From NCBI GenBank assembly GCA_032718475.1, contig JAUCBJ010001698.1, forward strand, positions 13,117 through 77,116: a stretch of DNA of 64,000 nt. Direction: 5' to 3'. The notes under the pieces were generated by a model that did not search any database, had not been told where the DNA came from, and saw only the letters and a list, made by a program, of their open reading frames with translations. Position 1 is the first letter of the stretch, and every line of letters begins with the position of its first letter. The stretch is from Nemertoderma westbladi. Its lineage: Eukaryota; Animalia; Xenacoelomorpha. A program made the translations under genes and the position numbers. Positions 16,004 to 39,729 of the stretch are shown in pieces.

Positions 16004-16282
16004 GTACAATCTGAGCAGGCTTACACGCCTTCTGCTCAATATTAGCCTACAAATAAATAAAACTGACAGAAATAAGTAAACCATACAAAGGAATAAGGGG
16101 TGATCAATCCCTAATCCCCTAATAGCCTACAATATACAATATATCACAATCGAAATAATACTAGTATCTGTACTGGTGTAAGTACCGGTCCGGGTGGTTA
16201 GGTAGTTGGGCCTACTGGTTACCGGTCGACCGGTACTTTTCAACTTTATTGCCTACTGCAATAAAGAAGCAATGACTGTTAT

Positions 16283-19830: not shown

Positions 19831-19957
19831 TATAGAATTATATTCTCTAAATGCCGTGGATTTTCAAAATTTTATTTTATTCGAATTAACTTTGTAAAAG
19901 ATTGCTTTGAATCCTCATTTGTATTTGTTATATCTATTGTACGCCTATTGGTCAAGT

Positions 19958-20044
19958 GGTTCAGTAGCTCAGTCGGTAGAGCGTTGGAAATTATATGTGT
20001 AGTAGGTATTGAGTTCGAATCCTAGTAAGAGCGAATTATTTTTT
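19958..20044 (+). other. tRNA-like cassette (Pol III A box, B box, T-run) in the LTR; copy at 36805-36891
   Basis: TAGCTCAGTCGGTAGAGC (intact D arm/A box), GAGTTCGAATCC (B box), followed by T6; acceptor and anticodon stems do not pair. Confidence 0.7.
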
Positions 20045-20101
20045 GTGCAGAATTTCAACTCATTTAAATTAACCGCTACAAATTAATTGCATTTGTCTGT
20101 A

Positions 20102-20383
20102 CCAATGAGACTGTAGTTATTTGATTGTAACCAATGTCGTGCAAGTTATATATTAGCTGGACCAATAGCTATCTTTAAAACCCTGTTAGAACCTATAGAA
20201 CAATCGAGAATTTTCTCGATTGATTGCAGCACAAATTTGCTATATAAAGGTGCGATTTGTTCATTAGTTATTCAATCTTCAATCTTATACATCTCAGTAT
20301 TTACATTCATTATCTCAGTGCATTCTATCTATATCTTTCTGATCTTATTAGTTATTATCTTATCTGTTTGATTTTGTAATAAA
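20102..20383 (+). promoter_or_regulatory. LTR Pol II promoter and polyadenylation signal
   Basis: CCAAT at 20102, 20131 and 20162; palindrome CAATCGAGAA-tt-TTCTCGATTG at 20201-20222; TATATAAA at 20241; AATAAA at 20378. Confidence 0.65.
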
Positions 20384-22624
20384 AGTTAGAAATACTTGTC
20401 AATCTCAGCCCTTTTCTATCTGTTTTACCATGATTCACTACGGTGAACAAACCTAAGGGACAGGATGGCCGGCCAGAGATCGGGCCGCAGCAATGAACGG
20501 GAACATCGGGGGAATGTAGACGAGAGACAACCCGCAATACCATCTTGAGTTATTCGCCCATCGCCTGAAAGGTTAGACAGCGTTCGACGCCTTGCTACCT
20601 AAGTATAAGACCAAAAGATCATAAGGTAGAAGTAGTGGCACGCTGTGAGCCTAAAATTACATCTTAGGGACTGTACTGTCTTGATTCAGGAAAAAACCAC
20701 AGTAGACCTTCATATTCCTACGGGGGGGGGGGAGAGCGCAGGCAGATACTAGTACGCAGATAGGACGTAGGCACACCGGTACGAAGCATACAAATTGGTA
20801 GGGTGCAGCAAACTGTACGCCTAACTCTTGCTAAGTACAGGTGTGTGTGCGACTATTTGTAGTACGACAGTGTCCATTGCATTAGAACTTGTAGGCTAGG
20901 GGGGTTGCTGTGTTTTCACCTGAATTGGGATTGTACCGTTCAGGCGGTAGGGCAGTTTACAGCTAGGCGCAAATAAATTGAGGCTATTAGGGATACTAAC
21001 ATCTACCGTGTCCCCGCCAACGCCCAAATAGGAAGTTACCCGGACTACCTGGGTGACTAAAATTCTAGATAGGAGCCAGGATAGCTATTAGTAACTGTAC
21101 GCCTACAGTAGTAAACTAACACATCTCTTCTTAGTATCAGGGACCTGGTACCTAAAATTGCCGAATTCTGGGCGTAGCATTAACCTTATGCCTGAATTTG
21201 AGTCCTGGAAATACGCAAGAGGGGAAGGAACCTTATCATTCGTGAGTATTGGACCTACAAGTTACAAAATTAGAATATTCGTAAAATGCACACCGTACCC
21301 AGTAATTATATATGTGAAGGAGCAAAACTGTCTTTGACCGTTCAGAATTAACACACGCGCGTTAGAAATTATTTACACCTCAAAATATATAAAATTAACT
21401 TTCGTCCGTACTGTGCTTTGCCCGCTAGTTAGACATCTCCAAATCTCTGCCTGTGTACCTAGCTAGCGTCCTTTCGCCCAACCATATAAATCACACCGCG
21501 GCAAAGTGTACGAGCCTCTTAGTCCGTCAGTGAGTCAGCCTGATTTTAGGATTCGCTGCGCGGGATTTTGTTTCACCGAAGTTTGTCTGCTCGTAGACTG
21601 TTTTCTGCCTCACCGGTTATAAGAGATCAATACTGCAATATATTCGCTTACTTAGTTTACTGTTTTGGTGAGAAGGTCGGATTTATGATTTGATTCACAA
21701 ACTTTACAGTAGGATATTGCAGGTATTGTTACTGTCTCTTCCATATAGTAGGAATAGGCGTATCTCTTCCAATAGTAGGAATATGATTATTTTAACATAT
21801 TTCCTAGAATAGTAGGAATATGTTTTACTGAACTACGGTTCGGTAGGACTAAAGTTATTTGAAAATTTTGTATTTTGAGGTAAAAATTTATATTTGATTA
21901 GCTAAGTGCTAATATTTTGAAAAAAAAAAATTTGATTTGAACCGCGTGTAAAATATTTTGGAATTGAATACCGGTGTTTAAAAAAGGGTTTAAATACCAT
22001 ATTGTACCGGTACAAAATTTTTCGTAAAAGTAAAACCTAACTCTTTTGTTTTTCAGGATTCAGAACTCATTTCTAGACTGTAACGGGAGCAAGACCGTGT
22101 TTAGCAAGTTTGGGAGATAGATAACTCAACAACTTTGGTTGGGAAAATCGCGTTTCGTCCGCAACGTTAAAAACGGAAAGGTTCACGTCCGGTTTGTATC
22201 TGGGAATCTGTTTTTCTGGAGAATTATTGGAGTGGGTGAGTTCAAAAAGTTGCATAAATAAGTTAGGCATTACCGTATTAGTTAAAATTATTGTGGGTTC
22301 CACTGTCTCAAGTATTTATGCATTCCGTATGATTTCTTTGTTCATTGCTGAATTAGTCCGTATTATTGTATTTAATTTACCTTTTGATAACGCATATCGT
22401 TATCCGATTTATTTGTTATAAAATTGGCCACTAGGCTAATTTTATTATATACTTATTCCGTGACATTTATTTGCTGTAAAATTGGCCGTTTAGGCTAATT
22501 TTATCCATCTGCTATAAAATCGGCCGGTAGGCTAATTTTATAAGACTGTAATTAGTACCGTTTAGATAAAATACGGTAAGTTTGATACTTTGACACTCAC
22601 TTTACTTGACTTACAACTACCGAA

Positions 22625-25600
22625 ATGAGTGACAAACAAAACTATACGAAAAATACACAAACCGACTATGACTCATGTGACGCGGATAAGTCAGCAGCGG
22701 AAGAACAACAGGGGAAGACTCGCGAGCCTACCGAACCTACACCGTGTGCGTCACCAGTACATCCAACGGGAGTACCGGATGCCGTAGTACGAGGCGACGG
22801 CAGGACCAAGGACTTTCTAACTGTTCCGCAACCTAGATACAGGGAAACGGACATGGTGAGTTCAGCAGGAAGTCAGGAAAGCGTTGTTAGGAGCGTCGGA
22901 GGATACATGGCGCATATTACCAGGAGTATTGGAGAAGGCCAATGCGTATTAGACGAGTTGACTGCGCCGATGTCTCGATTCGAGTTCTACACCCTCCAGG
23001 TGAGAGTACAGAGTAAAGTATATAAGTCCGTAGATAACCTAATTGGTCTACAAGATCTAGCTAGACAGAGACAGGACATGGATACTCAACTTAGAATCCT
23101 CGAGAAACTAATGATCGCTAGAGAGAAACTGATTCAGTTTAAGTCGACGATTAGACACATACAACAGGAACAAGCGGACCAGTTGTTAGGTGAGTCAGTT
23201 TCGGACGAATTATTACAGCCCGAGGAAGAACAGGAACTGTACCGACTGGATGGACAATTGAAACATCTGACGGACCACTTACGTATGTGCGGCGAAGACG
23301 TCGGCGATTCGGAAACCGTACCGGAATATACGAGGGAAACTTCACCCGTACGAATCGAATCGGCACCGGGAATACTGGACCAATCGTTAGTGAGTATTCG
23401 CAGCGAAATTGGCGAGATAAGTATAGTGACGTCAGAAATTTCCAGACAGCAACAACAAGTGGATAGACAACAACGGGAAGCGGAGGAACAAGCTCAACTG
23501 TTGACGGCACAAGGAGCCGTACAAGAAGAAAAACTACGCGTTGCGGATGTTGCAAGAATCTCTCATCTGCAAGAACAAGCCGAGTTGGAAGCGGCTGAGA
23601 TGGAAAGGTTGGAGCTAGAAATAGCACAGCGAACAGCGGCAGCTGAGTTAGCGCAACAAGCGGCAGCAGCTGAGTTAGCGCAACAAGCGGCAGCAGCTGA
23701 GTTAGAACGACAAGCGGCAGCAGCTGAGTTGGAAGAACACAAGCGAGTTTCGGAAGCAAGAGCTGAAATGAAAAAACGGCAAATAAAGGCTCAATCAGTG
23801 ATAAGACAAGCGGAGCTCGAGGCGCAACAACGACAGACGGAACAACGCGAGAAGGAAGTTAAACTTCATTTCGAACTCGGGAAGAAGGCGAGAGAATTAG
23901 CCAACGCGAAGGAAGATCTGGATCTGCAAGCCCGCGATCGATCAATGAGATCTCGAGACGGACATGACTTGGACCAGATAGAGGTAAGACATCGCCAAAT
24001 TCAGGAATGGAAGAAGGAAGGAAGCGTAGGAGCACCCGGACGGGAACGACAATTAGTAAAGGACTTGTGTCAACGATTCCCACAGGTAACTCATATGTTT
24101 GCACCGGTTACGACTAAGGAACCTGTTTCGATTGCGGGTAGTAGTAACATTTATCCTATCCATGGTGCGACGGAACACAGGTTTGTTATTCCGGACGAGT
24201 TTACACCGCCAAGAGCAACGTCGTCGCCTATTCCGAAAGTCAAGGTAAGTAACCCACCGATTACAGATCGTAGTAGTTTATTAGTCGAACCTGTATTACT
24301 GACGACTAAACAGGTGAGTCCACCTCTGACGCCAAAACCTGTTACACACTACGCTTACCCAATGACGTTTAGGCCAACAAGGCCTTTGGATTCAAACGCT
24401 GTTACTCGACCACCGGTTCAGTTTACATCGCAATCTACGACTTCGAGGAAGACTTGTGAGCCTACCGAACAACAGAGAACAGTGGATACGCGACCGTTCA
24501 ACCAATTTACATCGCAATCTACGACTTCGAGGAAGACTTGTGAGCCTACCGAACAACGGAGAACAGTGGATACGCGACCGTTCAACAAATTTACATCGCA
24601 ATCTACGACTTCGAGGAAGACTTGTGAGCCTACCGAACAACGGAGATCAGTGGACGATGTTCCAAAGCGAAACGTTAGAATTCGTACGACGCAATGGACG
24701 CGAGCACGTCGACCACCATATCCAGATGATAGTAGTACTTCGAGCGAATCGGATTACCCGAAACGCGAGGTATTTAGAACAGGGGCGGCCGATGAATACA
24801 AACGCGAGCGTTCAGACAACTCCTTTGTAGACAATCCTCCACAGAATACACCAACACAGAAGGCGTTACAACCAACGAGGCAAATCAGTACACAACAGTT
24901 CGCCGACATCCTGCGACCAGTTGTTAACAAGTTGGCTCAGATCGAGGAGCGTCTGGAGGAAGTTCAAACCGACAGTTCGAGGAACACTGAGTTCGAACAC
25001 AATAGACACCCGAAGGAACCACAAAGACCGGTACCTTCAAAACACACATCGTATCAGGGAAAAGCGCCAAGAAGGGAGAATATCAACCTGGTTACCAACC
25101 AAGGACGCGAAACTCTGAACGTTGCCGAGGAGATAGCGAAATTCGCAGCCAGACAAGGATTGCCGGTACAACAACCACCGAAGTTTTCCGGTAGCTCAAA
25201 ACACTGGCACACTTTCGTAGACTATATCGAATCCCAGATCGCCATGTGCGCCTTTACATCACGGGAGAAGTTCAATTACCTGCTCCAAACGTTGTCAGGA
25301 GAACCTAAACGTTTGGCAGAGACTTTCGTCGGTGTACCGGACGCCTTCGAACTAGCGTACGATCGTTTAACTTCGATATATGGAGGTACAGTCAGTATGG
25401 CCAGGTCAGTAATAGAGGAACTCTGTAAGGGAGGGGCTATCACTAAACCCGTCGACTTATTAAAACTGGCCGACGAGATAAAGAACGCTATCACTACTTT
25501 AAGATCCATTGGACAACTTGACTACGGGAATACCCCTACAGTCCTATTAAAGATCATAGGACGACTCCACCATCGACTTCGTCGGGAGTGGAGAAAGATC

Positions 25601-28600
25601 GAATACCAGCGAGAAGAGCGGGGTGGATTCTTAAAACTAGAGGATGTGTACCTTTTAATATCCAGGGAGGCAGTAGTAGAAACTCGATCTAACTACACTG
25701 ACCAGCACATCGTGGCAGAAGGAATCACATTGCCATCCTCCAACCGACAAAAACCCCAGACAACATCCACTAAGACGGCCACTTACACCACACCGACGGA
25801 ATCACGACAATTCTCGGACGGTAGTAGGGTATCTGCGCCCATTGGGACAAAACAGACGAGACAACAACTCGGTACCGACTTCAGCGGCTGCCAATACTGC
25901 GAGCATCTAGGCAAGCGGTATATCGGTCACAAGTTGAGGGGTTGTCGACAGTTTCGCGAGTTGAACTCGGAAGAACGACGGCTGCAGATACGGCCACTGG
26001 ACTCTTGTTGGCGGTGTACGCGACACGGACACGTCCGTAAAGATTGCCCAAATACCGACACTTGTCCATCCTGTGGACGCAACCACGACGGTCTGCTCCA
26101 CACAGACAGCCACACACCGACAAAACGCTTCGCCAGGGAACACCCGGAAGCAGCAGCGAGATGTGATGCGGCCTACAGAAAACGAGAATCGAAAACGACT
26201 CCAACCTTCGTGACCCATATTGAGGATTGCTTCTCAGAACAACCCGGATCGTCGGACGAAGAGTCAGAAGACGACGACGTATATTCGGATGGAGATGAAC
26301 AGCCATCGATCGCGCTTCTGACTACTGACCAACTAAAGGGATTTAGTGTAATTCCGATTAAGATTACCGGCACAAAGGGGAGTAAAAGAATCTACGCGAT
26401 TCTAGATTCAGCCTCATGTCACAGCTACGTGGATGAAAAGATAGCTGACGTCGTGACGGATCTCAGACAAGGTAAGCGCGTCAGTTATACCGTAAGTAGT
26501 ATGCACGGACTACGTGCAATACCAGTGACACGAGTCAAGTTAAACTTAGACTCTCTTCTTCCGAAATCGCAACACAGCGAGAGGGAGAGGTCTTTGTTAC
26601 CCTTCAAGGATTTGACCTTTGCGGCCACAAAAGACTTTAGTAACCTACTAGGTCCGGTCCCAGAACAATCCTTGGAGGACCGTAAGTATTTCAGACACCT
26701 TGGTGTACCAGAATGTCCTGTCAATTATAGATCGGTAGCCATGCTGATCGGGACAGACCAATTCAACCTACATCAAGTGTGGGAAACCAGACCATCGGCA
26801 GTCGTAGCGGGAAACGCATACGCCTGCAGAACGCCGATAGGGTGGTATACTCGAGCGCCTGTGCGCACACTGGACATAAGTGAAGAGGAAGACGATGTAC
26901 GAAGTACATGTAGTTTATTAACTACAAATTCAATTCATTCCTTCTCACACGACGTGAACCATACTACACTACAGTCGACAAAACGTGACAGACGTGTAAC
27001 TAGTATGATAAGTCACAAGGAGCAGCTAATCCACCAGCGGAGTTTAGAACTTGGGGAGAAGACGAGTCAGCTAGAGATTCCATCGACGACAGATGATAAC
27101 GCCGGAAGGCTTGCGAGTCTACCTACCCCAACGACATCAACAATGCCCGTCGAGATCGATGATGACGCGTTGAGAAATCATCAAATGGAACAAGCTGCAC
27201 TGGACAAAGAATTAACGGAGAAGACTATCAGGTGGTTAGAACAAGATACAGCTGAACCTGGTAGCTACGAACCTTGTATGTCGGAACAGGAGAAACAATC
27301 TCTGAAGATCATGGAAGATACTATCCGACAGACGGAGGACGGACATTATGAGGTAGGGATGTTATGGCGTAGCCAAAGTCCTAAACTCACAAATAACTAT
27401 CCACTGGCTTTAAGACGTCTACACTCAATACGGCAACGTCTATTAAAGGACGAGAAAGCCCATCTGCAGTATAACACTCAGATGGAGACGTATTTGACTA
27501 AAGGATACGCTATCCGAATGACTAACCCAGAGATAGTGACTGACCAAACATATTACTTGCCACATCACTATGTGAGACACCCCGACAAACCAGATAAAGT
27601 ACGCGTAGTCAATGACTGTGCGGCTCTGTTTGAGGGAATGTCCCTCAATAGTGAGTTGATGGATGGACCAAACATGAATAATTATCTTATGGGGGTGATT
27701 ATGCGCTTCCGTCAGCGTCAAGTAGCTTTTACTTGTGACGTTGAAGCGATGTTTCACCAAGTGAGAGCGTTAGAGCGAGACAGAGACAGTTTGCGGTTCC
27801 TCTGGTACCTGGAAGGAGACTTAAGTCTACCACCGGCGACTTACCAAATGCAAGTTCGCGTTTTCGGTGCCAGAGACAGCCCAAATTGCACGATGTACGC
27901 CCTAAAACAAGCCGCTAGAGATCAGAAACATCTATATGACCCAGAGATAATTAAAATCGTAGAACGTGACTTTTACGTAGACGACGGATTACAGAGTTGC
28001 GACACAGTAGAACGTGCTACAACAGTAGCACATCAATTACGGGACTGCTTAGCGGGCGGAGGTTTTAACCTCACCAAATTCGCCTCAAACAGTGCCGAAT
28101 TAGTAGACTCATTCGGAACGACTGAGCGTGGAGGTGGTGACATAGACCTAGAGTTCGAACCACTACCGACGACCAAGGTGTTGGGGCTCTTTTGGGACCC
28201 AAACACGGACAACTTCCGAGTGAAAGTAAGACTGGACAGTCAAGAAAACACACTGACAAAGAGATCATGCTTGTCAAAATTGAGCCGATTGTTCGATCCG
28301 TTAGGATTCATCAGTCCAGTAATACTGCAAGCCCGCATTTATATGCGCAGTATTTGGAAGGATGGACTAACATGGGACGAGCCGATCTCATCAGACCAAG
28401 TGGACTTATGGAAGACCTGGGAGGCGGAATTATCTTCGCTAGAGGATTATTCCATACCCAGAGTTTACTTTCCATTACAAAGTACATTTCCTGACAACTT
28501 GGAACTACACTGTTTTTCTGACGCCAGTGACAACGGTTTTGGTGTGGCAGCGTACTTGCGCAGACAAGTAGACTCAGAAGCATTCGATGTTTCGCTCATT

Positions 28601-31378
28601 ACTTCTAAGGCAAAAACAATGCCTACTAAGTATATGACGACACCACGAGCTGAGCTACAAGCCGCAACCCTGTCAACCACCATCGTGAACCTCATACAGA
28701 CAGAACTACAGTCAAGTTTACAGATATTTTATTGGACTGACGCGACGTTGGTTTTATTTTACATAAACAACGACACGCTTGAATTCAAGACATTCGTAGC
28801 TAACCGTCGCGCAGAAATTCTAGATCGTTCAATAAAAGAGGATTGGCGACATTGTCCCGGACCACAAAACCCAGCTGATATTGCGTCGCGAGGAATGATG
28901 CCTGAGGAATTCTGTAAACCGGAAAACAAAGAATTTTGGCAACACGGACCCCAATTCTTGCAGAAATCGACGCAAGATTGGCCACCGTTATGCGACAACA
29001 AGTCTAACACCATCCCTAAGGACGCCGAAATCAAGAAACCAAAAAAGGGGAAGGCAAAGAAAAAGACGACGGCGGCAAAACTCAAGAAAAAACCGAAGGC
29101 GAAATGGAAAGATATAACTTCAAAGGTCAAGAGAGGAAGACTTGCGAGCCTTTCTACACCAGACATATCGCCAGACGGTCAACCAGACACGTTACTAGAC
29201 GGTCAACCAGACGTTTTGTCAGACATATCACAAAATGTTCTACCAGACACTAGTAACATATTGACAAACAGTAAAGCCGCAGCTTCCCTATTGGAGCGGC
29301 CTTCTGTTGACAAACAACCAGATACGTTACCAGACGTATCGCCAGACACATTACTAGACAGTCGACTAGACATTTTGTCAGAAACATCACAAAATGTTCT
29401 ACCGGACATTAGTAATGTATCGACTAACAGTAAAGCCGCAGTTTCCCTATTGGAGCGGCCTTGTATTGACAAACTACCAATTTTGACACACTTGAGCAAC
29501 CATAAGCATGGTGAAACCTCATGTATTACAGATGTGGGTAGTACCTACGCTAATGTAAATACAGGTGTTACTCTGCGCTCAAGAGACATACCAAACTTGC
29601 AACCTATGGTGAGACCTGGGATTAATATCGGCAGAAAAATAAGCTTACCGAAACCCACTGACCCCATAGAGTTCAAACCACCATTAACGATCGACTTACA
29701 AAGTACTGACAATCAAGGTAAGAAGACGAAGAAGGACAAATTACTTGTAGACCCGGATGGATCAACAGTCAACAAGGGAATACTTACCGGCGGACCCGTG
29801 GGCCCTTCTAGTAATTCAAAACCTTCCAAATTCTCCATTGACTTACCTGATGACGTCACAAATACTTACGTCGACCGTATTGTAAACCTAACAGATTCTT
29901 GGACGAACGCTTGCCGAAAATTAGCGTGGATTGTACGTTTTGTACAATACGTTAAAGGCAAACGCGACTTTACACATCGACTTACATTGGCTGAGATTGA
30001 CAGGTGTGAGATTAAATTAATTCGCCATTACCAACTGCGATATTTCGCGCGCGAATTCACATCTATAAATCAAGGTCAACCAATCAAGTCGTCACCAATA
30101 CTGAGTTGGAGTCCGATTATTTATAATGGCTTAATTTGTCATAAATCTCGGCTTCAAAACATTGACTTTAACACAAACTTTAGGTACCCAATAATAATAC
30201 CGCAACATCACGAACTACAACGTGCAATGATACTGGACGCACATTTACATCTGAAACACGCTGGAAGACACCACTGTCTTTCCTACTTACGTACAAGATT
30301 TGTATTAATTAGACCCAGTAAAGCGTTAAGTTCAGTGACACGTACGTGTATTATTTGTAAAAAGGTACATTCTAGAATAGGTACCCAAGAAATGAGTGAA
30401 CTTCCACAAGCACGACTTCAAGCATTCAGACCACCTTTTACAGAGACTGGAATTGATTGCTTTGGTCCCATACATACGAAACGTGGACGTATACTAGTAA
30501 AACGCTGGGGACTGATTTTCACATGTATGTCCAGTAGGGCAGTTCACATTGAACGTGTGATGGATCTTTCCACCAACGCGTTTATACTAGCACTGCGGCG
30601 ATTTATCGCTAGACGCGGACTAGTGAAATGCTTGTACTCAGACCAAGGGACAAACTTTGTTGGTGCTCGAAATGAGATTGCTAGAGCCTTTAAGAAATTA
30701 GATCATGATCAAATCTCGAACGAACTGCAACCTCACAAGATTGTTTGGAAGTTCAATCCTCCAGATAGTCCTTGGAGAGGCGGAGTCTGGGAGAGATTGA
30801 TTAGATCTATAAAGACGGCAATGGCAAAGGTCATTCCAGTAAACCACATATTGACAGATGACCAACTGACGACACTGTTTGTTGAAATCGAGGCAATACT
30901 AAATACTAGACCAATAGTATTAGTACCCGATGACAAACAATCTCAGTTCGCTTTGACACCGGCACACCTGCTTATGCAGGCACCGACCATATTGACACCT
31001 ATTTCTATTCCAATAGAAAGCGACAGCTACAGTAGAAAAGCGTGGAAAATCACGCAACTACTAGCTAACAAATTCTGGGAAATATGGCAAAACCATTATT
31101 TGCCCTCTATTTCTGCCAGAACAACATGGTACAATAACACCCGCGCATTAAAGCCGGGAGATCACGTGCTGTTAGCGGAAGTGAATCTAAAAAGACGCTT
31201 CTGGATAACAGGTGTAATTTTAGCCACACATCCATCTATGGATGGAGTGACAAGAACTGTGACGGTACGGACAATTGACGGTCGTACAGTAGACAGACCG
31301 ACTCAACGTCTCGTACTTCTTGAAGAGACTCGTAACGAGTCTGGAGACTACAAATCTCCACCTAATACTAGTAAATAA
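22625..31378 (+). CDS. Element B gag-pol polyprotein, 2917 aa, intact
   Basis: Coiled-coil N-terminus; PPKFSG..REKFNYL gag; three Cys/His knuckles; protease AILDSAS; RT YYLPHH, CDVEAMFHQV, FYVDD; RNase H FSDASD, PRAEL, WTDA, NPADIASRG; integrase HHCC, GIDCFGP, SDQGTNF, WRGGVWERL. Confidence 0.97.
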   Translation: MSDKQNYTKNTQTDYDSCDADKSAAEEQQGKTREPTEPTPCASPVHPTGVPDAVVRGDGRTKDFLTVPQPRYRETDMVSSAGSQESVVRSVGGYMAHITRSIGEGQCVLDELTAPMSRFEFYTLQVRVQSKVYKSVDNLIGLQDLARQRQDMDTQLRILEKLMIAREKLIQFKSTIRHIQQEQADQLLGESVSDELLQPEEEQELYRLDGQLKHLTDHLRMCGEDVGDSETVPEYTRETSPVRIESAPGILDQSLVSIRSEIGEISIVTSEISRQQQQVDRQQREAEEQAQLLTAQGAVQEEKLRVADVARISHLQEQAELEAAEMERLELEIAQRTAAAELAQQAAAAELAQQAAAAELERQAAAAELEEHKRVSEARAEMKKRQIKAQSVIRQAELEAQQRQTEQREKEVKLHFELGKKARELANAKEDLDLQARDRSMRSRDGHDLDQIEVRHRQIQEWKKEGSVGAPGRERQLVKDLCQRFPQVTHMFAPVTTKEPVSIAGSSNIYPIHGATEHRFVIPDEFTPPRATSSPIPKVKVSNPPITDRSSLLVEPVLLTTKQVSPPLTPKPVTHYAYPMTFRPTRPLDSNAVTRPPVQFTSQSTTSRKTCEPTEQQRTVDTRPFNQFTSQSTTSRKTCEPTEQRRTVDTRPFNKFTSQSTTSRKTCEPTEQRRSVDDVPKRNVRIRTTQWTRARRPPYPDDSSTSSESDYPKREVFRTGAADEYKRERSDNSFVDNPPQNTPTQKALQPTRQISTQQFADILRPVVNKLAQIEERLEEVQTDSSRNTEFEHNRHPKEPQRPVPSKHTSYQGKAPRRENINLVTNQGRETLNVAEEIAKFAARQGLPVQQPPKFSGSSKHWHTFVDYIESQIAMCAFTSREKFNYLLQTLSGEPKRLAETFVGVPDAFELAYDRLTSIYGGTVSMARSVIEELCKGGAITKPVDLLKLADEIKNAITTLRSIGQLDYGNTPTVLLKIIGRLHHRLRREWRKIEYQREERGGFLKLEDVYLLISREAVVETRSNYTDQHIVAEGITLPSSNRQKPQTTSTKTATYTTPTESRQFSDGSRVSAPIGTKQTRQQLGTDFSGCQYCEHLGKRYIGHKLRGCRQFRELNSEERRLQIRPLDSCWRCTRHGHVRKDCPNTDTCPSCGRNHDGLLHTDSHTPTKRFAREHPEAAARCDAAYRKRESKTTPTFVTHIEDCFSEQPGSSDEESEDDDVYSDGDEQPSIALLTTDQLKGFSVIPIKITGTKGSKRIYAILDSASCHSYVDEKIADVVTDLRQGKRVSYTVSSMHGLRAIPVTRVKLNLDSLLPKSQHSERERSLLPFKDLTFAATKDFSNLLGPVPEQSLEDRKYFRHLGVPECPVNYRSVAMLIGTDQFNLHQVWETRPSAVVAGNAYACRTPIGWYTRAPVRTLDISEEEDDVRSTCSLLTTNSIHSFSHDVNHTTLQSTKRDRRVTSMISHKEQLIHQRSLELGEKTSQLEIPSTTDDNAGRLASLPTPTTSTMPVEIDDDALRNHQMEQAALDKELTEKTIRWLEQDTAEPGSYEPCMSEQEKQSLKIMEDTIRQTEDGHYEVGMLWRSQSPKLTNNYPLALRRLHSIRQRLLKDEKAHLQYNTQMETYLTKGYAIRMTNPEIVTDQTYYLPHHYVRHPDKPDKVRVVNDCAALFEGMSLNSELMDGPNMNNYLMGVIMRFRQRQVAFTCDVEAMFHQVRALERDRDSLRFLWYLEGDLSLPPATYQMQVRVFGARDSPNCTMYALKQAARDQKHLYDPEIIKIVERDFYVDDGLQSCDTVERATTVAHQLRDCLAGGGFNLTKFASNSAELVDSFGTTERGGGDIDLEFEPLPTTKVLGLFWDPNTDNFRVKVRLDSQENTLTKRSCLSKLSRLFDPLGFISPVILQARIYMRSIWKDGLTWDEPISSDQVDLWKTWEAELSSLEDYSIPRVYFPLQSTFPDNLELHCFSDASDNGFGVAAYLRRQVDSEAFDVSLITSKAKTMPTKYMTTPRAELQAATLSTTIVNLIQTELQSSLQIFYWTDATLVLFYINNDTLEFKTFVANRRAEILDRSIKEDWRHCPGPQNPADIASRGMMPEEFCKPENKEFWQHGPQFLQKSTQDWPPLCDNKSNTIPKDAEIKKPKKGKAKKKTTAAKLKKKPKAKWKDITSKVKRGRLASLSTPDISPDGQPDTLLDGQPDVLSDISQNVLPDTSNILTNSKAAASLLERPSVDKQPDTLPDVSPDTLLDSRLDILSETSQNVLPDISNVSTNSKAAVSLLERPCIDKLPILTHLSNHKHGETSCITDVGSTYANVNTGVTLRSRDIPNLQPMVRPGINIGRKISLPKPTDPIEFKPPLTIDLQSTDNQGKKTKKDKLLVDPDGSTVNKGILTGGPVGPSSNSKPSKFSIDLPDDVTNTYVDRIVNLTDSWTNACRKLAWIVRFVQYVKGKRDFTHRLTLAEIDRCEIKLIRHYQLRYFAREFTSINQGQPIKSSPILSWSPIIYNGLICHKSRLQNIDFNTNFRYPIIIPQHHELQRAMILDAHLHLKHAGRHHCLSYLRTRFVLIRPSKALSSVTRTCIICKKVHSRIGTQEMSELPQARLQAFRPPFTETGIDCFGPIHTKRGRILVKRWGLIFTCMSSRAVHIERVMDLSTNAFILALRRFIARRGLVKCLYSDQGTNFVGARNEIARAFKKLDHDQISNELQPHKIVWKFNPPDSPWRGGVWERLIRSIKTAMAKVIPVNHILTDDQLTTLFVEIEAILNTRPIVLVPDDKQSQFALTPAHLLMQAPTILTPISIPIESDSYSRKAWKITQLLANKFWEIWQNHYLPSISARTTWYNNTRALKPGDHVLLAEVNLKRRFWITGVILATHPSMDGVTRTVTVRTIDGRTVDRPTQRLVLLEETRNESGDYKSPPNTSK
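23635..23731 (+). repeat. 27-bp coding tandem repeat (AAAAELAQQ-like) in gag
   Basis: GCGGCAGC(AGC)TGAGTT repeated 4 times. Confidence 0.85.
24417..24655 (+). repeat. 84-bp coding tandem repeat, ~3 copies, in gag
   Basis: FTSQSTTSRKTCEPTEQ.R.VD repeated; motif starts at 24447, 24531 and 24615. Confidence 0.92.
29160..29480 (+). repeat. ~159-bp duplication in the long RNase H-integrase linker
   Basis: SQNVLPD.SN..TNSKAA.SLLERP..DK occurs twice. Confidence 0.85.
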
Positions 31379-32040
31379 TTAGGAGTTTACAAATAGATTT
31401 CCACGTACCTGTACACCGTAGTAAGGACAGCGGTAGAATTCCATTGTCTTTATATGTGAACATTGAGGGTAGTACCCTTATGTGTCATATAGGAGCGGGA
31501 TTTGTAGGTATAAGAAATGGAATTCTACTTGGAACTCACAATATTGAGACATTTTCGAAAATTTAGACAATCCATTTGGATTTGAAAAATTTTTAAAAAT
31601 TTTCTCCAGTGAATAGATTTCAGGGTACAGTCGGGTGGAACTTAAAATTAGAGAAACAAGAGAGGAAGACTTGCGAGCCTTTCTTAAAATTTTTAATTAA
31701 ATTTTACACGGTCTTGTTTCAATAAGTTACGTCAAAATAGACTCCCCTATATTTATTTACTAATTCTTGACTGCTTATTTTCTGATAATAGTTTGGGATC
31801 AAAAAGTGAGTATTTTAGACTCACAGCCAGTTTAGCCCAAATTCGTTTTTATTTCGGCAAAAAATTTTAGATAAGAAGCAGCGTGTCATTAAAGAAACCC
31901 TAGATCTTAGGCTATGGGTAGGAGGTTAGAGCGTTGTCGAGCCCAAAGGGCAGACGAAACTCTCACGTCTCCTCACAACTAACTACAAACTCTGTTGTAT
32001 TCCCTCTAGTAGTAATGATTATGTAACTACACCCCTAATT

Positions 32041-35000
32041 ATGGAGAAAGGGATACAAGGAGAGCCGAGATGGGGATATGATATCCAAGAGGAGGCAGCA
32101 GCGCCATTCGAAAGATTTGGAGCCAAGGACTACACTATATTTGGTATAAAAGAATTATCGGAAAGTACAGCGAAACTCGCGAGAACTAAATATGACTCGA
32201 ATGTATTAAAGAGAAGACAAAACGCATTAAACGAAAGAATCGAAAGTTTGCGTCAAACCTTCAATGAACTTTACCCGTACGACGCTTTGTGTGATACGGG
32301 AGACATTAGCGAAGACCCCGATACTGAAATTAGTCGTTTGTATCATACCATGCAATACCTAAAGGCACACGAACCTATGCCCGCGGTAAGAGATGAATTC
32401 GATGGAATGCATCTTTACAGACGAACTCGAGGGGACGATAGAGAAACCAAGGAAGCATTTTCAGTTTATAAACTTTATTATCAATGCGGTTCTTGAATGC
32501 GCGAACAACGAAATGCGATTCCGATGCGTTTGAATAAGGAAAATCCCGAACCGATATTGGCGAGGTGTTCGAATCATCAACAACTACGCTACCAGGAAGG
32601 AGGGTATCCTTTATCGAATCCATATCATTCATTTGCTATGACCGGACCAAAGGCGGGAGAAACTGTCATTTACCCACCTAAGGTTGTTGAACCCGATGTA
32701 TTTGAACTTACGCTGGACGAGGCGAATCAGTCAACCCGCGAAAAGAAAGAAGCTCTTAGCCTATACAGAGCCTACAAGGCTTTCGAGAAAGGTGAGATGG
32801 AAGAATGGGGTGGAAGACTCGCGAGCCTACCTTGCCATTGGACGTCACACGATCAAACTTCAGCTAAGGAGATGACACCGGAAGTTTTCGAGAGCATAAA
32901 CTTTGCTCAAAACGTTATTCAGAGACTACAGATTGCATCCCCGGAGAGGACAAGAGAAATGCAACCGTATAGTACTTCAACTACGAAACCATTGAGTACG
33001 ACACTCAACTTTCCTATTAGTATACCAGTCCGACAGGATACGACGTACGAAATACCCATCGTGGATCATCCAGAAATCATTTCAAACTTGGAGTTTCTTC
33101 CTGCAGTTGTTTTCAGCGATATGAGTAAGATATATGATTTACGTAGACATATTACTCAAAAGGTCGTGTACAACGTTCCACCTCATATTCAAGATTTCAA
33201 GGAACTGGATAGAGCTGGTGCCGATATAGCTCCGAGTAATCTGAAAGGATATCTAACCGAGACGATTCGTTTATGGATTGGAACCGGAACCTTCGAGTCG
33301 GATACAGATATTGCCGCAGATTGGCGAGGTAAGGTTATTCGTTTCGAAGATGATAAGGATATAGAGAAGATTTGGCAACCTTCGGAAGAATTGTTGGATG
33401 AATGGAATAGGACGTTCAGATCGTTTCAGGAAAATGGTAACATGTTTTACGATAACGAGGGCGGCAGTCATCAGCAGAGTTTGACTTCTAAGACTATACA
33501 GATTAGAGCGGCGGACGGAGTCCTGCACGTTTTCAGTAGACAGAGGAGCGACAAACGAATGCCGATACCTCCAGCGAATACAAAGCGACACCATCTTATC
33601 ACCGATATAGTAAAGAAGATGGACCAAGCTTGTAATATTGACGCTAGAATGCTACCGAAGATGGTAAGAAACATGATTTTAGATAAAACTGTTGTAAAGA
33701 TTGGATCAGGAGTAAGGGAGGATTTAATTAGCGACTTCGCCGGCATGACGGACAGCGATGACCGACTACCGACACCTTACGTCGACACTCGACCTCTTAT
33801 CTTGTGGTCTATAGAACAGGGATATTTTCGTGAGTACAATACTCAGAAGACTGGAACTGGGTACATTTCCTACCTGTTATTCAATTGGGATTATAAGGAA
33901 AATAAGAGAAACAAGTATATTGAAACTTATGGAGAAGGTGATACTCCAGATATGAGTGAGTTTGAATCACAGCTTAAATGGAGAGGATGCGTGTATTGGG
34001 CCATTACGTCACCTCCAAGAGCGGTCTTACAATATTATTTAGCAATAGAGTCGTCAGTGAATGTTTGCTTAATCGCCGACATTGTGTCTCGGACTCTCAA
34101 AAGACATCCACTTTGTCTCGGAGAAGATCATACGTTCTACATGGAAGGGAGAATTCGTACCGACGTGTTTAGACGATTCCTTGAACCCTTCTACAACTCC
34201 GACGCTCAGTGTAATGCCTTTACTCGAGCAGGATTTAGTATATTTCGAGACGTGTATCTTCGCTGTGCGGGATCTCTTATCGAAAGACCATCTATGTTTA
34301 CATTGTTACCCTATGAAGGAGAACGTATCGTGGAGATTACGGAAGAATCACGGCAGACGCGCGCGCCTATCGGTCACCTTGGTGATGATTTCGAAGTAAC
34401 TACTACGATCGCTGACGATCCTTTAGAGGAACTTCTTGAGATAGAAAGGAACCTCCCGAAGAAATCTCAGACGGAGATTCGACAACTTGAAGCAACAGAT
34501 GCTATAGTTTGTATACAACCTTCAGAAACCTACCAACCCATAGACCCAGATGATTACGATTATAGTATGGGAGGAAGCGCTCGACCGATTGGAGATCTTA
34601 TATACGAACGAGTGTGGTACCCTGCCAATACGATGTGTAGTAAATGTGGCGTCGCTGGACATCATATGACAAAGTGCAGTGGAAAGCACATTACTACGAC
34701 TCAGCTAATCTGTGGATGGTGTGGGGATCAAGGGTCTCATACATTTTATACTTGCTGGAGATTTATGGCTCAATGTACTTACTGCAATATAAAGGGACAT
34801 CGAGCATCTGAATGCCAATTAAGAGACATACCTTATGAACACGAATCTGTAAAACTCGTGAGGAAATTATTCGATGAGTGGGAAGATTTAGCCGACGAAC
34901 ATGTATCGGCACAAAGAAGACGGTTTCCGATGAGAGCGCATCTCGGATTTTGGGCGGTAAATCCCCAGACGATGATGTCGGAAGGATACATCTCCGCTAT

Positions 35001-35766
35001 GCCCCAATATGACGAACTTATCGAGGTTGTCGATATTTTGCCCCACGACAGCGGATTCCGAGTGGTGCGCAAGTATCTACTACAGATTCACCCGGATAAC
35101 AAAAACACGTGGAATTTTCAGAAAGTCGTTAATCGCATTACGTATGGTGAATTCGATCGTTTCCGAACCGAAAGGCGGAACAAAGGAGCTTGGTTAACCG
35201 TCGCATGGGCGTACCGAGCCGCGTTTTACCATAAACGTATACGAGCGAGCGTATTCGAGGAAGAGGAGGTCCTAGAGGCGACAAATATACCAGCCACTCC
35301 GGTTGCGCTGTCTGCACGTCACCCTCGGGAGGACGGGCAGGGTAGGATCATACGGGTCCAAAAGGTGGGCCAACAATTAAAGAAAATTATTAATGTAGAA
35401 GAACGCAAGGGAGTTGAGCCGACTATTCGAGTTACTCGGGATACGGTATCACTTCCAAGAGAACCAGTAGGAGGATCGGGACATACACCAGCTGATCAAC
35501 AGGGGGCGCAAGCTACTCTTGGGTCTGCGTCGTCCGCTTCTCGCGTGTTCCCAGACGTTCTACCAACTGTAGTGACGACTGATCGGTCACGAGGAATCGG
35601 TCGAGGTTTTGGGATGCCAAATAGACGAATTTGCGAGGAAATAGTCGCACCGTCTCTCAACGTCCCAAGTAAACCAGTGACTCGCCCCACGAGTCCCATA
35701 TCGCGAGCAAAGTCACCTGTGCGCAGTTTTCGAGGACGCGGCAGGGCTCGATCCACTAAGCGATAA
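32041..35766 (+). CDS. Element B ORF2 (~1241 codons with one in-frame TGA at 32494-32496): DEDDy-like 3'-5' exonuclease, three CCHC knuckles, Arg/Gly tail
   Basis: ORFs 32041-32496 and 32497-35766 are in one frame; FYDNEG..TIQIR, LPKMVRNMILDKTVVKIGSGVRED, YVDT, YLAIE; CSKCGVAGHHMTKC, CGWCGDQGSHTFYTC, CTYCNIKGHRASEC; homologous to A ORF2. Confidence 0.85.
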
Positions 35767-35829
35767 AAGGGAGGGCAAGGGTGGACGGAAGACTCGTGAG
35801 CCTTTCTTATGATTTGTGATTTATTTGAA

Positions 35830-36480
35830 TTTATATTTATATTTGTGTTTATTCCGAACTTAAGCAATTTGTATTGTTCCGAATTTATGAAATTTAGAAA
35901 GTTTATATTTAGAAGGAACTTATATTTGAAAGATTTATGTTTCATATTTGAGATGCAAAGGAGTTTATATTATTCTAAACTTATGCAGTTTATATTTATA
36001 TTTAGTAAGACTTATATTTGTAAGAATTTATATTTGTGATTATTCCGAACTTATGCAATTTATATTATTCCGAACTTATGCAATTTATATTGTTCCGAAT
36101 ATTATGCAATTTATATTTTATAAGCAGTATTTGTATTTACAGTGAAATAGAAAGTAAGAGTAGATGGAAGACTCGTGGGCCTTTCTTATAGTTTCATTTG
36201 TAAAGTGTTATATTTTGTATTTAGAAAGTTTTATAGTCAGAAAGTTTTGTGCTTAGAAAGACTCATATTTGTAATTATTCCGAACTTATGCAATCTACAT
36301 TTAGGCACGAAAGTGTTTGTAATTATTTGAATTTATGCAATATTTGAGATGCAATAGTAGATGGAAGACTCGCGAGCCTTTCTTATTGTTTTCATTTATT
36401 TGTATTTGTAATTGTTTGAATTTATGCAATATTGAGATGCAATAGATTTATATTGGTGAATTTAATTTAGATTTATATTG
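35830..36480 (+). repeat. AT-rich repetitive 3' UTR of element B
   Basis: Many variants of ATTCCGAACTTATGCAATTTATATT. Confidence 0.75.
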
Positions 36481-36677
36481 TACTTACTTAGTAAAGCCTT
36501 AAATACGTAAAGTTTGAATTTGTAATTATTTTTGTATCGAATCATTACGTAGAAAGGAAGTATTGTTTGAAATTTAATTGTAAATATGTAAGTACGCCCT
36601 AAGTATTCTATAGTTTGATTGATTATTGGTGAAAACCGTATATTTATGCACGATAATATCCTGTTTTCATGGAGCGG

Positions 36678-38618
36678 TATAGAATTATATTCTCTAAATG
36701 CCGTGGATTTTCAAAATTTTATTTTATTCGAATTAACTTTGTAAAAGATTGCTTTGAATCCTCATTTGTATTTGTTATATCTATTGTACGCCTATCGGTC
36801 AAGTGGTTCAGTAGCTCAGTCGGTAGAGCGTTGGAAATTATATGTGTAGTAGGTATTGAGTTCGAATCCTAGTAAGTGCGAATTATTTTTTGTGCAGAAT
36901 TTCAACTCATTTAAATTAACCGCTACAAATTAATTGCATTTGTCTGTACCAATGAGACTGTAGTTATTTGATTGTAACCAATGTCGTGCAAGTTATATAT
37001 TAGCTGGACCAATAGCTATCTTTAAAACCCTGTTAGAACCTATAGAACAATCGAGAATTTTCTCGATTGATTGCAGCACAAATTTGCTATATAAAGGTGC
37101 GATTTGTTCATTAGTTATTCAATCTTCAATCTTATACATCTCAGTATTTACATTCATTATCTCAGTGCATTCTATCTATATCTTTCTGATCTTATTAGTT
37201 ATTATCTTATCTGTTTGATTTTGTAATAAAAGTTAGAAATACTTGTCAATCTCAGCCCTTTTCTATCTGTTTTACCATGATTCACTACGGTGAACAAACC
37301 TAAGGGACAGGATGGCCGGCTAGAGATCGGGCCGCAGCAATGAACGGGAACATCGGGGGAATGTAGACGAGAGACAACCCGCAATACCATCTTGAGTTAT
37401 TCGCCCATCGCCTGAAAGGTTAGACAGCGTTCGACGCCTTGCTACCTAAGTATAAGACCAAAAGATCATAAGGTAGAAGTAGTGGCACGCTGTGAGCCTA
37501 AAATTACATCTTAGGGACTGTACTGTCTTGATTCAGGAAAAAACCACAGTAGACCTTCATATTCCTACGGGGGGGGAGAGCGCAGGCAGATACTAGTACG
37601 CAGATAGGACGTAGGCACACCGGTACGAAGCATACAAATTGGTAGGGTGCAGCAAACTGTACGCCTAACTCTTGCTAAGTACAGGTGTGTGTGCGACTAT
37701 TTGTAGTACGACAGTGTCCATTGCATTAGAACTTGTAGGCTAGGGGGGTTGCTGTGTTTTCACCTGAATTGGGATTGTACCGTTCAGGCGGTAGGGCAGT
37801 TTACAGCTAGGCGCAAATAAATTGAGGCTATTAGGGATACTAACATCTACCGTGTCCCCGCCAACGCCCAAATAGGAAGTTACCCGGACTACCTGGGTGA
37901 CTAAAATTCTAGATAGGAGCCAGGATAGCTATTAGTAACTGTACGCCTACAGTAGTAAACTAACACATCTCTTCTTAGTATCAGGGACCTGGTACCTAAA
38001 ATTGCCGAATTCTGGGCGTAGCATTAACCTTATGCCTGAATTTGAGTCCTGGAAATACGCAAGAGGGGAAGGAACCTTATCATTCGTGAGTATTGGACCT
38101 ACAAGTTACAAAATTAGAATATTCGTAAAATGCACACCGTACCCAGTAATTATATATGTGAAGGAGCAAAACTGTCTTTGACCGTTCAGAATTAACACAC
38201 GCGCGTTAGAAATTATTTACACCTCAAAATATATAAAATTAACTTTCGTCCGTACTGTGCTTTGCCCGCTAGTTAGACATCTCCAAATCTCTGCCTGTGT
38301 ACCTAGCTAGCGTCCTTTCGCCCAACCATATAAATCACACCGCGGCAAAGTGTACGAGCCTCTTAGTCCGTCAGTGAGTCAGCCTGATTTTAGGATTCGC
38401 TGCGCGGGATTTTGTTTCACCGAAGTTTGTCTGCTCGTAGACTGTTTTCTGCCTCACCGGTTATAAGAGATCAATACTGCAATATATTCGCTTACTTAGT
38501 TTACTGTTTTGGTGAGAAGGTCGGATTTATGATTTGATTCACAAACTTTACAGTAGGATATTGCAGGTATTGTTACCGTCTCTTCCATATAGTAGGAATA
38601 GGCGTATCTCTTCCAATA
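36678..38618 (+). repeat. 3' LTR of element B (1941 bp)
   Basis: Direct repeat of 19831-21774, preceded by the PPT and followed by TSD ATGTT. Confidence 0.97.
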
Positions 38619-38900: not shown

Positions 38901-39006
38901 TTCTCATTTTTTTGTAGCTAGTTTTAGTCGCTTCCATTTACTTTCTAGAATATCAGATATTATATATTATATTATACATTGAACAAATGACAATATATCC
39001 AGACCT

Positions 39007-39525
39007 ACACGTGTAGCCACACCCCCACCTACGCGTACACCTTCATATACACGTGTAGGCCAGACCCCCACCTACGCGTACACCTTCACATACACGTGTA
39101 GGCCACACCCCCACCTACGCGTACACCTTCACATACACGTGTAGGCCACACCCCCACCTACGCGTACACCTTCACATACACGTGTAGGCCACACCCCCAC
39201 CTACGCGTACACCTTCACATACACGTGTAGGCCACACCCCCACCTACGCGTACACCTTCACATACACGTGTAGGCCACACCCCCACCTACGCGTACACCT
39301 TCACATACACGTGTAGGCCACACCCCCACCTACACGTACACCTTCACATACACGTGTAGGCCAGACCCCCACCTACGCGTACACCTTCACATACACGTGT
39401 AGGCCACACCCCCACCTACGCGTACACCTTCACATACACGTGTAGGCCAGACCCCCACCTACGCGTACACCTTCACATACACGTGTAGGCCACACCCCCA
39501 CCTACGCGTATACCTTCACATACAC
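39007..39525. repeat. 43-bp minisatellite, ~12 copies, intronic
   Basis: Unit TACACGTGTAGGCCACACCCCCACCTACGCGTACACCTTCACA, head-to-tail. Confidence 0.95.
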
Positions 39526-39591
39526 AATACTAATACACATACGTTATGTGAACATACCTTTAGTCTGACAATTATTTCTATTTTATTTTAG

Positions 39592-39729
39592 GTACGATTG
39601 GGAAACATGGGTACTGAAGAAAGTGAGATTTACCACTGGGCTAAAATTGTCAACTTTGCAGGTCAGCCAATCACAGAATGGCACGCCCTGATGGAACCAG
39701 AAACTGATTTCCATTTACAAGAGTTATAG
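39592..39729 (+). CDS. Terminal coding exon of the synaptotagmin-like C2 gene
   Basis: Acceptor ttttag|; VRLGNMGTEESEIYHWAKIVNFAGQPITEWHALMEPETDFHLQEL*; the HW...PI..WH.L C2B ending; phase 0 matches the exon ending at 18883. Confidence 0.85.
   Translation, partial: VRLGNMGTEESEIYHWAKIVNFAGQPITEWHALMEPETDFHLQEL

Follow-up and report, generated by a model that had tools for sequence, protein, structure and literature searches.

A 20-nt hairpin-capable word dispersed along the sense strand of a giant BEL/Pao retrotransposon: a possible tag of its genomic RNA

The DNA analysed here is a 64-kb stretch of contig JAUCBJ010001698.1 from Nemertoderma westbladi (hereafter the window), and the element in question, element B, occupies 19831-38618 of it; two further elements, A and C, lie in the same window. 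Element B is an intact, young BEL/Pao retrotransposon of 18.8 kb. Its two long terminal repeats (LTRs) are 99.64% identical by self-BLAST and the 5-bp target duplication ATGTT stands on both sides of it, from which it follows that the insertion is young. Between the LTRs lie an 850-nucleotide (nt) 5′ untranslated region (UTR), Gag-Pol, a 1.1-kb spacer, a second open reading frame (ORF2) and a 0.9-kb 3′ UTR that is AT-rich and repeat-rich. Dispersed through this body is a 20-nt word, capable of folding into a hairpin, which is the subject of this report. The features of the element are the following.

19831..21774, + strand: 5′ LTR of B, 1944 nt; begins TATAG and ends CAATA
22236..32008, + strand: intron of the subgenomic (ORF2) RNA; donor GG/GTGAGT, acceptor CTCTAG/T (slash, cut; exact to ±1 nt)
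22610..31378, + strand: Gag-Pol, a single frame of 2922 amino acids (aa) from stop to stop; first ATG at ~22625
32497..35766, + strand: ORF2, 1089 aa; no Pfam family above threshold
36678..38618, + strand: 3′ LTR of B, the self-BLAST partner of the 5′ LTR

The word was searched for on both strands as the 20-nt pattern GGAAGRCTYGYGRGYCTWYC. It occurs without mismatch on the + strand at 11 starts (22713, 24447, 24531, 24615, 27104, 29135, 31664, 32812, 35787, 36166 and 36363), which are the very sites named in an earlier, sequence-only reading of this DNA, and none of 100 dinucleotide shuffles yields a match. We refer to these 11 copies as canonical. Allowing up to three mismatches adds one locus in the whole window, 34352 (+), and the 45 kb of the window outside B contain no copy at this tolerance in either orientation; the finding that would have told against a role, a word equally common elsewhere and on both strands, is thus not what the window holds. 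As far as the window reaches, this also tells against a miniature palindromic insert of genome-wide spread, which would leave copies outside B in both orientations. An unbiased all-against-all scan of 20-mers (at least 17 matches) returned the word as the sole dispersed family that is not AT-rich, with 11 loci. Its locations as given in that reading, in gag, in the protease-reverse transcriptase (PR-RT) and RNase H-integrase (RH-IN) linkers, in the pol-ORF2 spacer, in ORF2 and in the 3′ UTR are all borne out. Neither the LTRs (19831-21774, 36678-38618) nor the 5′ UTR (21775-22624) carry a copy by pattern, at up to three mismatches or by the structured model described below, and for the LTRs this agrees with what had been claimed.

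When position i is set opposite position 21-i, the word forms an imperfect stem closed by a YGYG loop, with a conserved A6.C15 mismatch two pairs below that loop. With three diverged members (29789, 30263 and 34352) added to the 11 near-identical ones, the total comes to 14 sites on the same strand, spread without clustering over 13.7 kb (22713-36382). The sites are listed here in order.

22713..22732, + strand: copy 1, GGAAGACTCGCGAGCCTACC; gag N-terminus, frame 1, GKTREPT; 34.4 bits with model R1
24447..24634, + strand: copies 2-4 (starts 24447, 24531, 24615); in-frame 84-nt tandem repeat, frame 1, RKTCEPT; one independent locus
27104..27123, + strand: copy 5, GGAAGGCTTGCGAGTCTACC; PR-RT linker, frame 0, GRLASL; G6.U15 replaces A6.C15; orientation ambiguous
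29135..29154, + strand: copy 6; RH-IN linker, frame 0, GRLASL; segment missing from relatives
29789..29808, + strand: diverged copy, GGCGGACCCGTGGGCCCTTC; pairs 4-17 and 8-13 changed on both sides; A6.C15 and YGYG centre kept
30263..30282, + strand: diverged copy, GGAAGACACCACTGTCTTTC; perfect 8-bp stem (-7.1 kcal/mol) with loop CCAC; in the Integrase_H2C2 zinc domain (GRHHCLS)
31664..31683, + strand: copy 7; non-coding pol-ORF2 spacer
32812..32831, + strand: copy 8; N-terminal part of ORF2, frame 0, GRLASL; identical to copy 1
34352..34371, + strand: diverged copy, GGCAGACGCGCGCGCCTATC; ORF2, frame 1; pair 8-13 changed from U-A to G-C
35787..35806, + strand: copy 9; 3′ UTR, starting 21 nt past the last base of the ORF2 stop codon
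36166..36185, + strand: copy 10; 3′ UTR; U8.G13
36363..36382, + strand: copy 11; 3′ UTR, inside a ~87-nt unit

Seven matches to the pattern on the minus strand are the same loci in reverse, since the word is near-palindromic. The earlier statement that the word always lies in the sense orientation stands for ten of the 11 sites and fails for 27104, whose orientation is ambiguous (mean distance 3.88 to the reverse complement and 4.38 to the forward word). Counted by independent canonical loci, the strand is uniform at eight of nine. The copy at 27104 is a near-exact complement of the others, matching 18-19 of 20 pairs with the canonical ones, and its predicted cofolding energy with nine other loci runs from -20.3 to -32.3 kcal/mol (-26.0 to -32.3 for the eight canonical loci, -20.3 for 34352). 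On these predictions, it could form long-range duplexes with any other copy in one RNA.

Beyond the window, a narrowed pattern that fits nine of the 11 sites, GGAAGACTYGYGAGCCTWYC, found no match in viral_contigs; in metagenome_contigs it found 26 single matches on both strands, approximately the chance estimate, and neither blastn nor tblastn links any of these to the element. The covariance models of Rfam 15, run over 19831-38618 on both strands, gave no match at E values up to 1.

Two properties of the word had been read from its translations, namely that it is used in two reading frames and that the constraint acts on the nucleotides, and we confirm both. Frame 1 is used at four canonical sites (GKTREPT/RKTCEPT) and frame 0 at three (GRLASL; 27104, 29135 and 32812), a copy just behind the ORF2 stop lies in the third frame, and four copies (31664, 35787, 36166 and 36363) are non-coding. 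A word that recurs in two frames of the ORFs, in a third behind a stop codon and in non-coding DNA cannot have a peptide as its common cause. It is thus very improbable, and largely refuted, that GRLASL and KT(R/C)EPT are maintained as protein motifs, for example as protease cleavage sites at domain borders. All three frame-0 sites do encode GRLASL, two of them at the PR-RT and RH-IN borders, and where their six GRLASL codons differ, at positions 6, 9, 15 and 18 of the motif, the changes are all synonymous. However, gag uses the second frame, the non-coding copies encode nothing, and the GRLASL sites draw on the same codon families, as expected from shared nucleotide ancestry; moreover, none of 118 relatives carries GRLASL, KTREPT, KTCEPT or a comparable repeated peptide, P0075 having only the five-residue RLASL. 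At the GRLASL sites themselves, protein and nucleotide constraints probably act jointly.

The positions of the coding copies relate to the architecture of Gag-Pol. Pfam assigns to it DUF1759 (aa 859-996), Peptidase_A17 (1883-2044), Integrase_H2C2 (2534-2588) and DUF5641 (2811-2904); the domain order is PR-RT-RH-IN, and the conserved blocks align with ten BEL/Pao relatives. The protein is ~900 aa longer than these relatives (~1,600-2,100 aa), and the alignment places the extra length in three lineage-specific inserts (aa 401-750, 1451-1550 and 2151-2400) that are rich in in-frame tandem repeats, with units of 27 nt (23639-23730), 84 nt (24422-24654) and 159 nt (29183-29479). All canonical gag-pol copies fall inside these inserts or in the unaligned N-terminus, segments missing from the ten relatives; this includes the segment holding copies 2-4. 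In such segments, the protein pays the lowest price for an extra RNA signal. The diverged copy in the integrase, 30263, is the weakest member of the set; there, the flanking GGAAGA codes for a conserved Gly-Arg and the flanking CTTTC for a conserved Leu-Ser.

The element encodes zinc knuckles of the kind that could read such a signal. Gag has one CCHC knuckle at aa 1133 (nt 26006-26047) and ORF2 has three at aa 714, 739 and 760 (nt 34636-34815), which Pfam matches only below threshold. Judged from their sequences, the Gag knuckle and those of ORF2 (aa 714-773) are the candidate readers. ORF2 itself is expressed by splicing, like retroviral env, as shown by a contig from DNA run X4 in which 22234 is followed directly by 32009 and the missing segment has GT..AG ends: it is a genomic copy of the spliced subgenomic RNA. 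This joint places the seven canonical sites from 22713 to 31664 in the intron, and the remaining four of the 11 are common to the subgenomic RNA.

To describe the word as a structure, covariance models were built from the nine independent canonical loci, one with the hairpin (R1) and one of sequence only (R2). R1 adds three sites, all on the + strand of B, at 34352 (18.5 bits, E 2.3e-4), 29789 (15.9 bits, E 0.0027) and 30263 (13.5 bits, E 0.027), with the best match outside B reaching 10.2 bits; R2 gives 34352 only 5.2 bits and does not list 29789 or 30263. What sets the diverged sites apart from the canonical word is chiefly double substitutions that leave a base pair intact (8-13 to G-C, C-G or A-U; 4-17 to G-C), and 29789 and 34352 also retain the A.C mismatch and the YGYG centre. 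Across all sites, pair 8-13 thus takes the states U-A, U.G, G-C, C-G and A-U. The simulated chance of at least two pair-keeping double changes is 0.012-0.023. A plain descriptor requiring at least 15 of 20 pattern matches and five pairs finds these three sites in the sense strand of B and none in ~90 kb of other sequence on both strands, against a null mean of 0.06 and at least three sites in none of 300 resamples. A scan for YGYG hairpins with uninterrupted stems revealed no sense-strand excess beyond the known sites.

The centre of the word varies in a particular way. Among the 11 canonical copies, exchange of C and T is the sole variation at positions 9 and 11, and G10 and G12 never change; in three copies, the centre CTCGCGAG is a perfect 8-bp palindrome. 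As the change is C/U only, the centre CUYGYGAG stays self-complementary in RNA through G.U pairing. Predicted homodimers range from -8.2 to -25.3 kcal/mol, with a shuffle mean of -12.7 kcal/mol and a fraction of 0.04 at or below the observed energy. These predictions suggest that two RNA copies could pair with each other at corresponding loci and so make dimer contacts at many sites. The pattern fits equally well with a tetraloop gripped by a knuckle, having G at loop positions 2 and 4. The nucleocapsid knuckles of human immunodeficiency virus type 1 (HIV-1) grip the second and fourth bases, both G, of the SL2 and SL3 tetraloops, and in operators of the MS2 type a tetraloop goes together with an unpaired A located two pairs beneath it. 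The loop of 30263 is not palindromic, and this site therefore fits the hairpin only.

A near-palindromic 20 bp could also be a box in the DNA, recognised by a dimeric DNA-binding protein as an enhancer, an insulator or a chromatin mark; the gypsy element, for instance, carries an array of 12 Su(Hw) sites. The palindromic centre CTCGCGAG in three copies and minus-strand matches at one or two mismatches are what such a box would show, and CpG is not depleted in B (observed/expected 1.18). A dimer site should, however, tolerate mirror changes, yet positions 9 and 11 vary between C and T while 10 and 12 never change, and the A6/C15 asymmetry is kept at ten of the 11 canonical sites and in the diverged 29789 and 34352. 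Changes in both partners preserve pairing and not a DNA recognition sequence, and instead of clustering, the sites extend across 13.7 kb. We consider a DNA-level role distinctly unlikely.

Our preferred reading is that the word is a repeated cis-acting tag on the sense RNA, acting in selection or pairing of the genome RNA through knuckle proteins or RNA-RNA contacts, and we put its probability at roughly 0.35. As a mechanism, the word on the sense RNA of B would form a repeated hairpin tag, predicted to be bound by the zinc-knuckle proteins of B, which would serve the selection or pairing of the long genomic RNA. The copies would have been kept since they help the RNA. Their format would be that of a protein-recognition hairpin, in which a tetraloop presenting G at its second and fourth positions sits on two closing pairs, with the constant A.C mismatch beneath them. 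A more specific form, in which the 14-site hairpin array is the element's own address label, read by the knuckles, and two genome copies (RNAs 15 kb or more in length) zip up at corresponding loci, we offer more tentatively still. The interpretation given by the sequence-only reading, distributed packaging signals or marks of the element's own RNA possibly bound by the Gag or ORF2 knuckles, is overall partly supported.

Several observations weigh against the tag, and the first concerns its placement. Retroviral and Ty1 packaging and dimerisation signals sit in the 5′ UTR; that of B (21775-22624) has no copy, the first lying ~90 nt into gag. Next, the hairpin is weak. The canonical sense 20-mers are predicted at -0.4 to -2.0 kcal/mol (-4.9 kcal/mol for 27104), as a result of the conserved A6.C15 mismatch, and they gain no stability over shuffled versions of themselves, of which a fraction of 0.17-0.91 reaches the observed energy or a lower one. 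Within ±100 nt of context, the sense stem exceeds a probability of 0.2 at only three of 12 sites, and 31664 is the sole site at which it is strongly predicted (pair probability up to 0.95). On these predictions, the imperfect stem with its YGYG tetraloop is a pairing pattern rather than a stable structure.

The antisense strand also folds better at nine of ten distinct loci (11 of 12 sites), with -2.8 to -5.1 kcal/mol as against -0.4 to -2.9 kcal/mol in sense, because A6.C15 turns into G.U there. This raises the alternative of a hairpin that works on the opposite strand, in an antisense transcript or in minus-strand cDNA, where the mean stem probability in context exceeds 0.5 at seven of 12 sites, against one of 12 in sense. 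Yet A, B and C alike have more G.U-tolerant hairpins on the antisense strand, and A and C are without the word; we therefore read the excess in all three elements as a consequence, at least in part, of an A-rich sense strand and not as a sign of antisense function. Pair 2-19 is G.U in seven of ten distinct sequences, and this, together with U8.G13 at 36166 and the C/U-only centre, favours the sense strand. DNA parameters leave the hairpins next to no stability (0 to -1.7 kcal/mol). An antisense hairpin is accordingly improbable.

Covariation is a further point of caution for the tag. With the 11 canonical copies and 34352, 60 of 500 shuffles reach the observed share of paired states, which is not significant; once all three diverged sites are added, the covariation score is 0.258 against 0.127 ± 0.027, and none of 500 shuffles reaches it. 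The significant value, however, uses sites chosen by methods that reward pairing, and its signal is partly built in. The claim that variants keep their pairing thus depends on the diverged sites, and the covariance model proposed as a check did uncover three more pair-keeping sites in B, themselves selected by a pairing-aware model. The independent part of the pairing signal is the restriction of the diverged sites to the sense strand of B.

Relatives and family copies add to this side of the balance. Searches with Gag-Pol over its whole length and with shorter relatives found no protein closer than 48% identity. In family variation over 36146-36402 (three runs), five places vary at 5% or more, all within the 217 flank bases; the 40 motif bases have none, against an expectation of 0.8 (p ~0.43), and the numbers are too few to inform. 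Elements A (1-17488, minus strand) and C (50787-60181) are also BEL/Pao, with a pol 42-44% identical to that of B, and A carries a homologue of ORF2 that includes its three CCHC knuckles (394-2205, minus strand; 28% identity, E 1e-47). Neither A nor C has this word, another dispersed word or a hairpin array. Since A lacks the word despite a homologous knuckle-bearing ORF2, the word is no clade-wide requirement; the comparison with A and C upholds its specificity to B and not a general need for it. To judge from these sequences, the word is an invention of the B lineage.

The copies also bear traces of their origin. Flanks are unrelated at most copies, but some sub-groups share them: 29135 and 31664 have 7 nt in common on the 5′ side, and the two copies are identical over 28 nt; 36166 and 36363 share 7 nt 5′ and 4 nt 3′; 22713 and 24447 share 4 nt 3′. 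Copies 24447, 24531 and 24615 lie in one in-frame 84-nt tandem repeat. Tandem repetition and shared flanks reduce the 11 copies to some 8-9 independent loci, and near-identity over 20-28 nt with shared flanks means that the copies are related by copying, so that their sameness is not in itself evidence of selection. From the flanking bases common to sub-groups, we infer that the word spread by copying of patches of ~25-30 nt.

Such copying could be the whole story. A near-palindromic patch of ~25-30 nt, duplicated by template switching of the reverse transcriptase or by short-tract conversion, might survive wherever it does no harm, as a by-product without function. The shared flanks agree with this, as does the location of several copies in or beside tandem repeats, with a variable number of 3′ UTR units; all gag-pol copies lie in segments that relatives lack, copying on the same strand would alone give uniform orientation, and A and C manage without the word. 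The number of hairpin-bearing 3′ UTR units indeed differs within the family, whose copies are very deeply covered and highly varied in three DNA runs of a single organism, each from a different study. A minority of these copies have lost the 36166 site by deletion (joints 36135->36223, 36147->36222 and 36155->36246; runs X3 and X4), and in others the ~87-nt unit with 36363 is tandemly repeated (go-back joint 36402->36316; runs X1, X3 and X4). Nonetheless, a functionless word needs at least five in-frame arrivals, in two frames, fixed without benefit in an active lineage, and neither the pair-keeping double changes of the three diverged copies nor the C/U-only centre is expected under neutral decay. 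We regard this explanation as unlikely, though it carries the most weight among the alternatives to the tag.

The 3′ UTR repeats also contain two half-words like the 5′ arm of the motif, GTAAGACTTATATTT and AGAAAGACTCATATTT, at 36000-36020 and 36253-36272. These may be decayed or precursor copies.

Unlikely as well is a signal on the sense RNA that addresses a host factor, either as a target of ~20-nt small RNAs or as a site for an RNA-binding or RNA-modifying factor in export, stability or adenosine methylation. The word is conserved linearly over ~20 nt, the length of a guide RNA, on the same strand at ten of 11 sites, and its sequence is conserved far above what pairing needs. It contains AGACU, with the mismatched A6 at the centre of that motif. 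Three copies lie between ORF2 and the 3′ LTR, a position comparable to that of retroviral export elements. Against this, an element should lose, and not multiply, the targets of repressing small RNAs, the window holds no complementary source, and a linear target leaves the double changes at 29789, 30263 and 34352 unexplained.

Four further candidates were dropped. Internal polypurine tracts do not agree with a purine run that is inconsistent across sites, and splice acceptors or branch points do not agree with a pyrimidine run that follows only some class-2 copies, both as read from the sequence, from which the stem also appears too short for ADAR to edit the A.C mismatch. An artefact of assembly or of adapters was set aside as the frames are kept and independent short-read contigs of three studies cover two of the 3′ UTR sites without variants.

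As a tag of the genomic RNA, the array invites comparison with several known systems. Dispersed packaging signals guide packaging-signal-mediated assembly in single-stranded RNA viruses and act on the pregenome of hepatitis B virus (HBV) (PMC6281560, PMC7612645, PMC7793301, PMC4751978). In these systems, many short sites that share one motif are found genome-wide, including coding parts, on the packaged strand, and in this the array of B is alike. It differs in that the signals described there are degenerate and their binding by coat protein has been demonstrated, whereas the copies in B are near-identical over 20 nt, belong to an animal LTR element, have a weak predicted hairpin and are candidate binding sites.

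HIV-1 has a dimerisation palindrome, the DIS, and SL2 and SL3 tetraloops that are bound by knuckles, and like those knuckle-bound loops the loop of B has G at positions 2 and 4. For Ty1, PAL1 and PAL2 have been described as palindromic dimerisation and packaging sequences (PMC6844567), and a palindromic stem-loop has been reported in gag of feline immunodeficiency virus (FIV) (PMC2987497). The word of B resembles the palindromes of Ty1, FIV and HIV-1 in having a self-complementary core, lying on the sense genomic RNA and being predicted to pair with itself, with one copy at the start of gag. Those palindromes number one to three and lie in the 5′ leader or at the gag start; B, by contrast, has 14 sites, which extend across 13.7 kb and leave the 850-nt 5′ UTR free. 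The array as a whole therefore lies outside the region near the primer-binding site (5′ leader or gag start) where dimerisation palindromes are located.

Among LTR retrotransposons, the LTRs of maize Sireviruses contain a palindrome-rich region, cis-regulatory in character, which is a hot spot of small interfering RNAs linked to silencing (PMC4728375). Both cases involve conserved, hairpin-capable palindromes in an LTR retrotransposon family, but the Sirevirus palindromes belong to the cis-regulatory part of the LTR, while the LTRs of B are free of the word and its copies lie in the transcribed body. Our literature search, which covered papers at the level of abstracts at most, found no description of an array of this kind in an LTR retrotransposon; one may still exist in print.

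To our knowledge, a detailed understanding of how an LTR retrotransposon selects its own RNA exists, besides the retroviruses, for Ty1 and Ty3 of yeast only; these systems use few signals, clustered in the 5′ leader, and we know of dispersed multi-copy signals only as a feature of single-stranded RNA viruses and HBV. If the word is a tag, reverse-transcribing elements would make use of dispersed multi-copy signals as well, perhaps to cope with the great length of some genomes. If it is moreover an address label, it would be the retrotransposon counterpart of packaging-signal-mediated assembly. A tag of this kind would further offer a compact, testable handle consisting of a 20-nt RNA and two knuckle domains.

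In its general make-up, B is a BEL/Pao element, with LTRs, a 5-bp duplication, a single gag-pol frame and the domains DUF1759, Peptidase_A17, Integrase_H2C2 and DUF5641. It departs from its relatives in a Gag-Pol that is longer by ~900 aa and in an ORF2 of 1089 aa with three CCHC knuckles, expressed from a spliced RNA. The closest Gag-Pol proteins among 5.8 billion clusters come from BEL/Pao elements of cnidarians, molluscs, fish and insects, at 40-48% identity at most, and viral_contigs contain no locus related to Gag-Pol. ORF2 gave three weak matches only against 1.84 billion representatives and nothing meaningful by phmmer against the PDB, and a single-sequence AlphaFold model of its aa 330-800 was uninformative (mean pLDDT 31.6). 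An Atlas cluster combining a PF01612 exonuclease with zf-CCHC scored 0.84 with ORF2, below the level at which we count a match, and is noted as a lead only.

The CpG ratio given above refers to the body of B (21775-36677); the LTRs and the rest of the window stand at 0.89-0.90. About 300 nt past the 3′ LTR of B lies a 43-nt satellite of ~16 units with a core 98-99% identical (38930-39611). A 161-nt repeat at 43516-44275 has direct and inverted copies (~80-83% identity), forming a large inverted-repeat structure.

The ends of element A, 1-315 and 17174-17488, are direct repeats of 99% identity and resemble LTRs. On this sequence evidence, A, which lies on the minus strand and is truncated where the window starts, would be another giant BEL/Pao element, with a length of 17.5 kb or more. 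Element C is ~80% identical to A. The two share a near-palindromic 20-mer of their own, TTCCAGAACATGTCTGGGA, which occurs twice in A (5318 and 5485) and twice at matching places in C (53999 and 54196); its core GAACATGTCT fits the half-site form RRRCWWGYYY.

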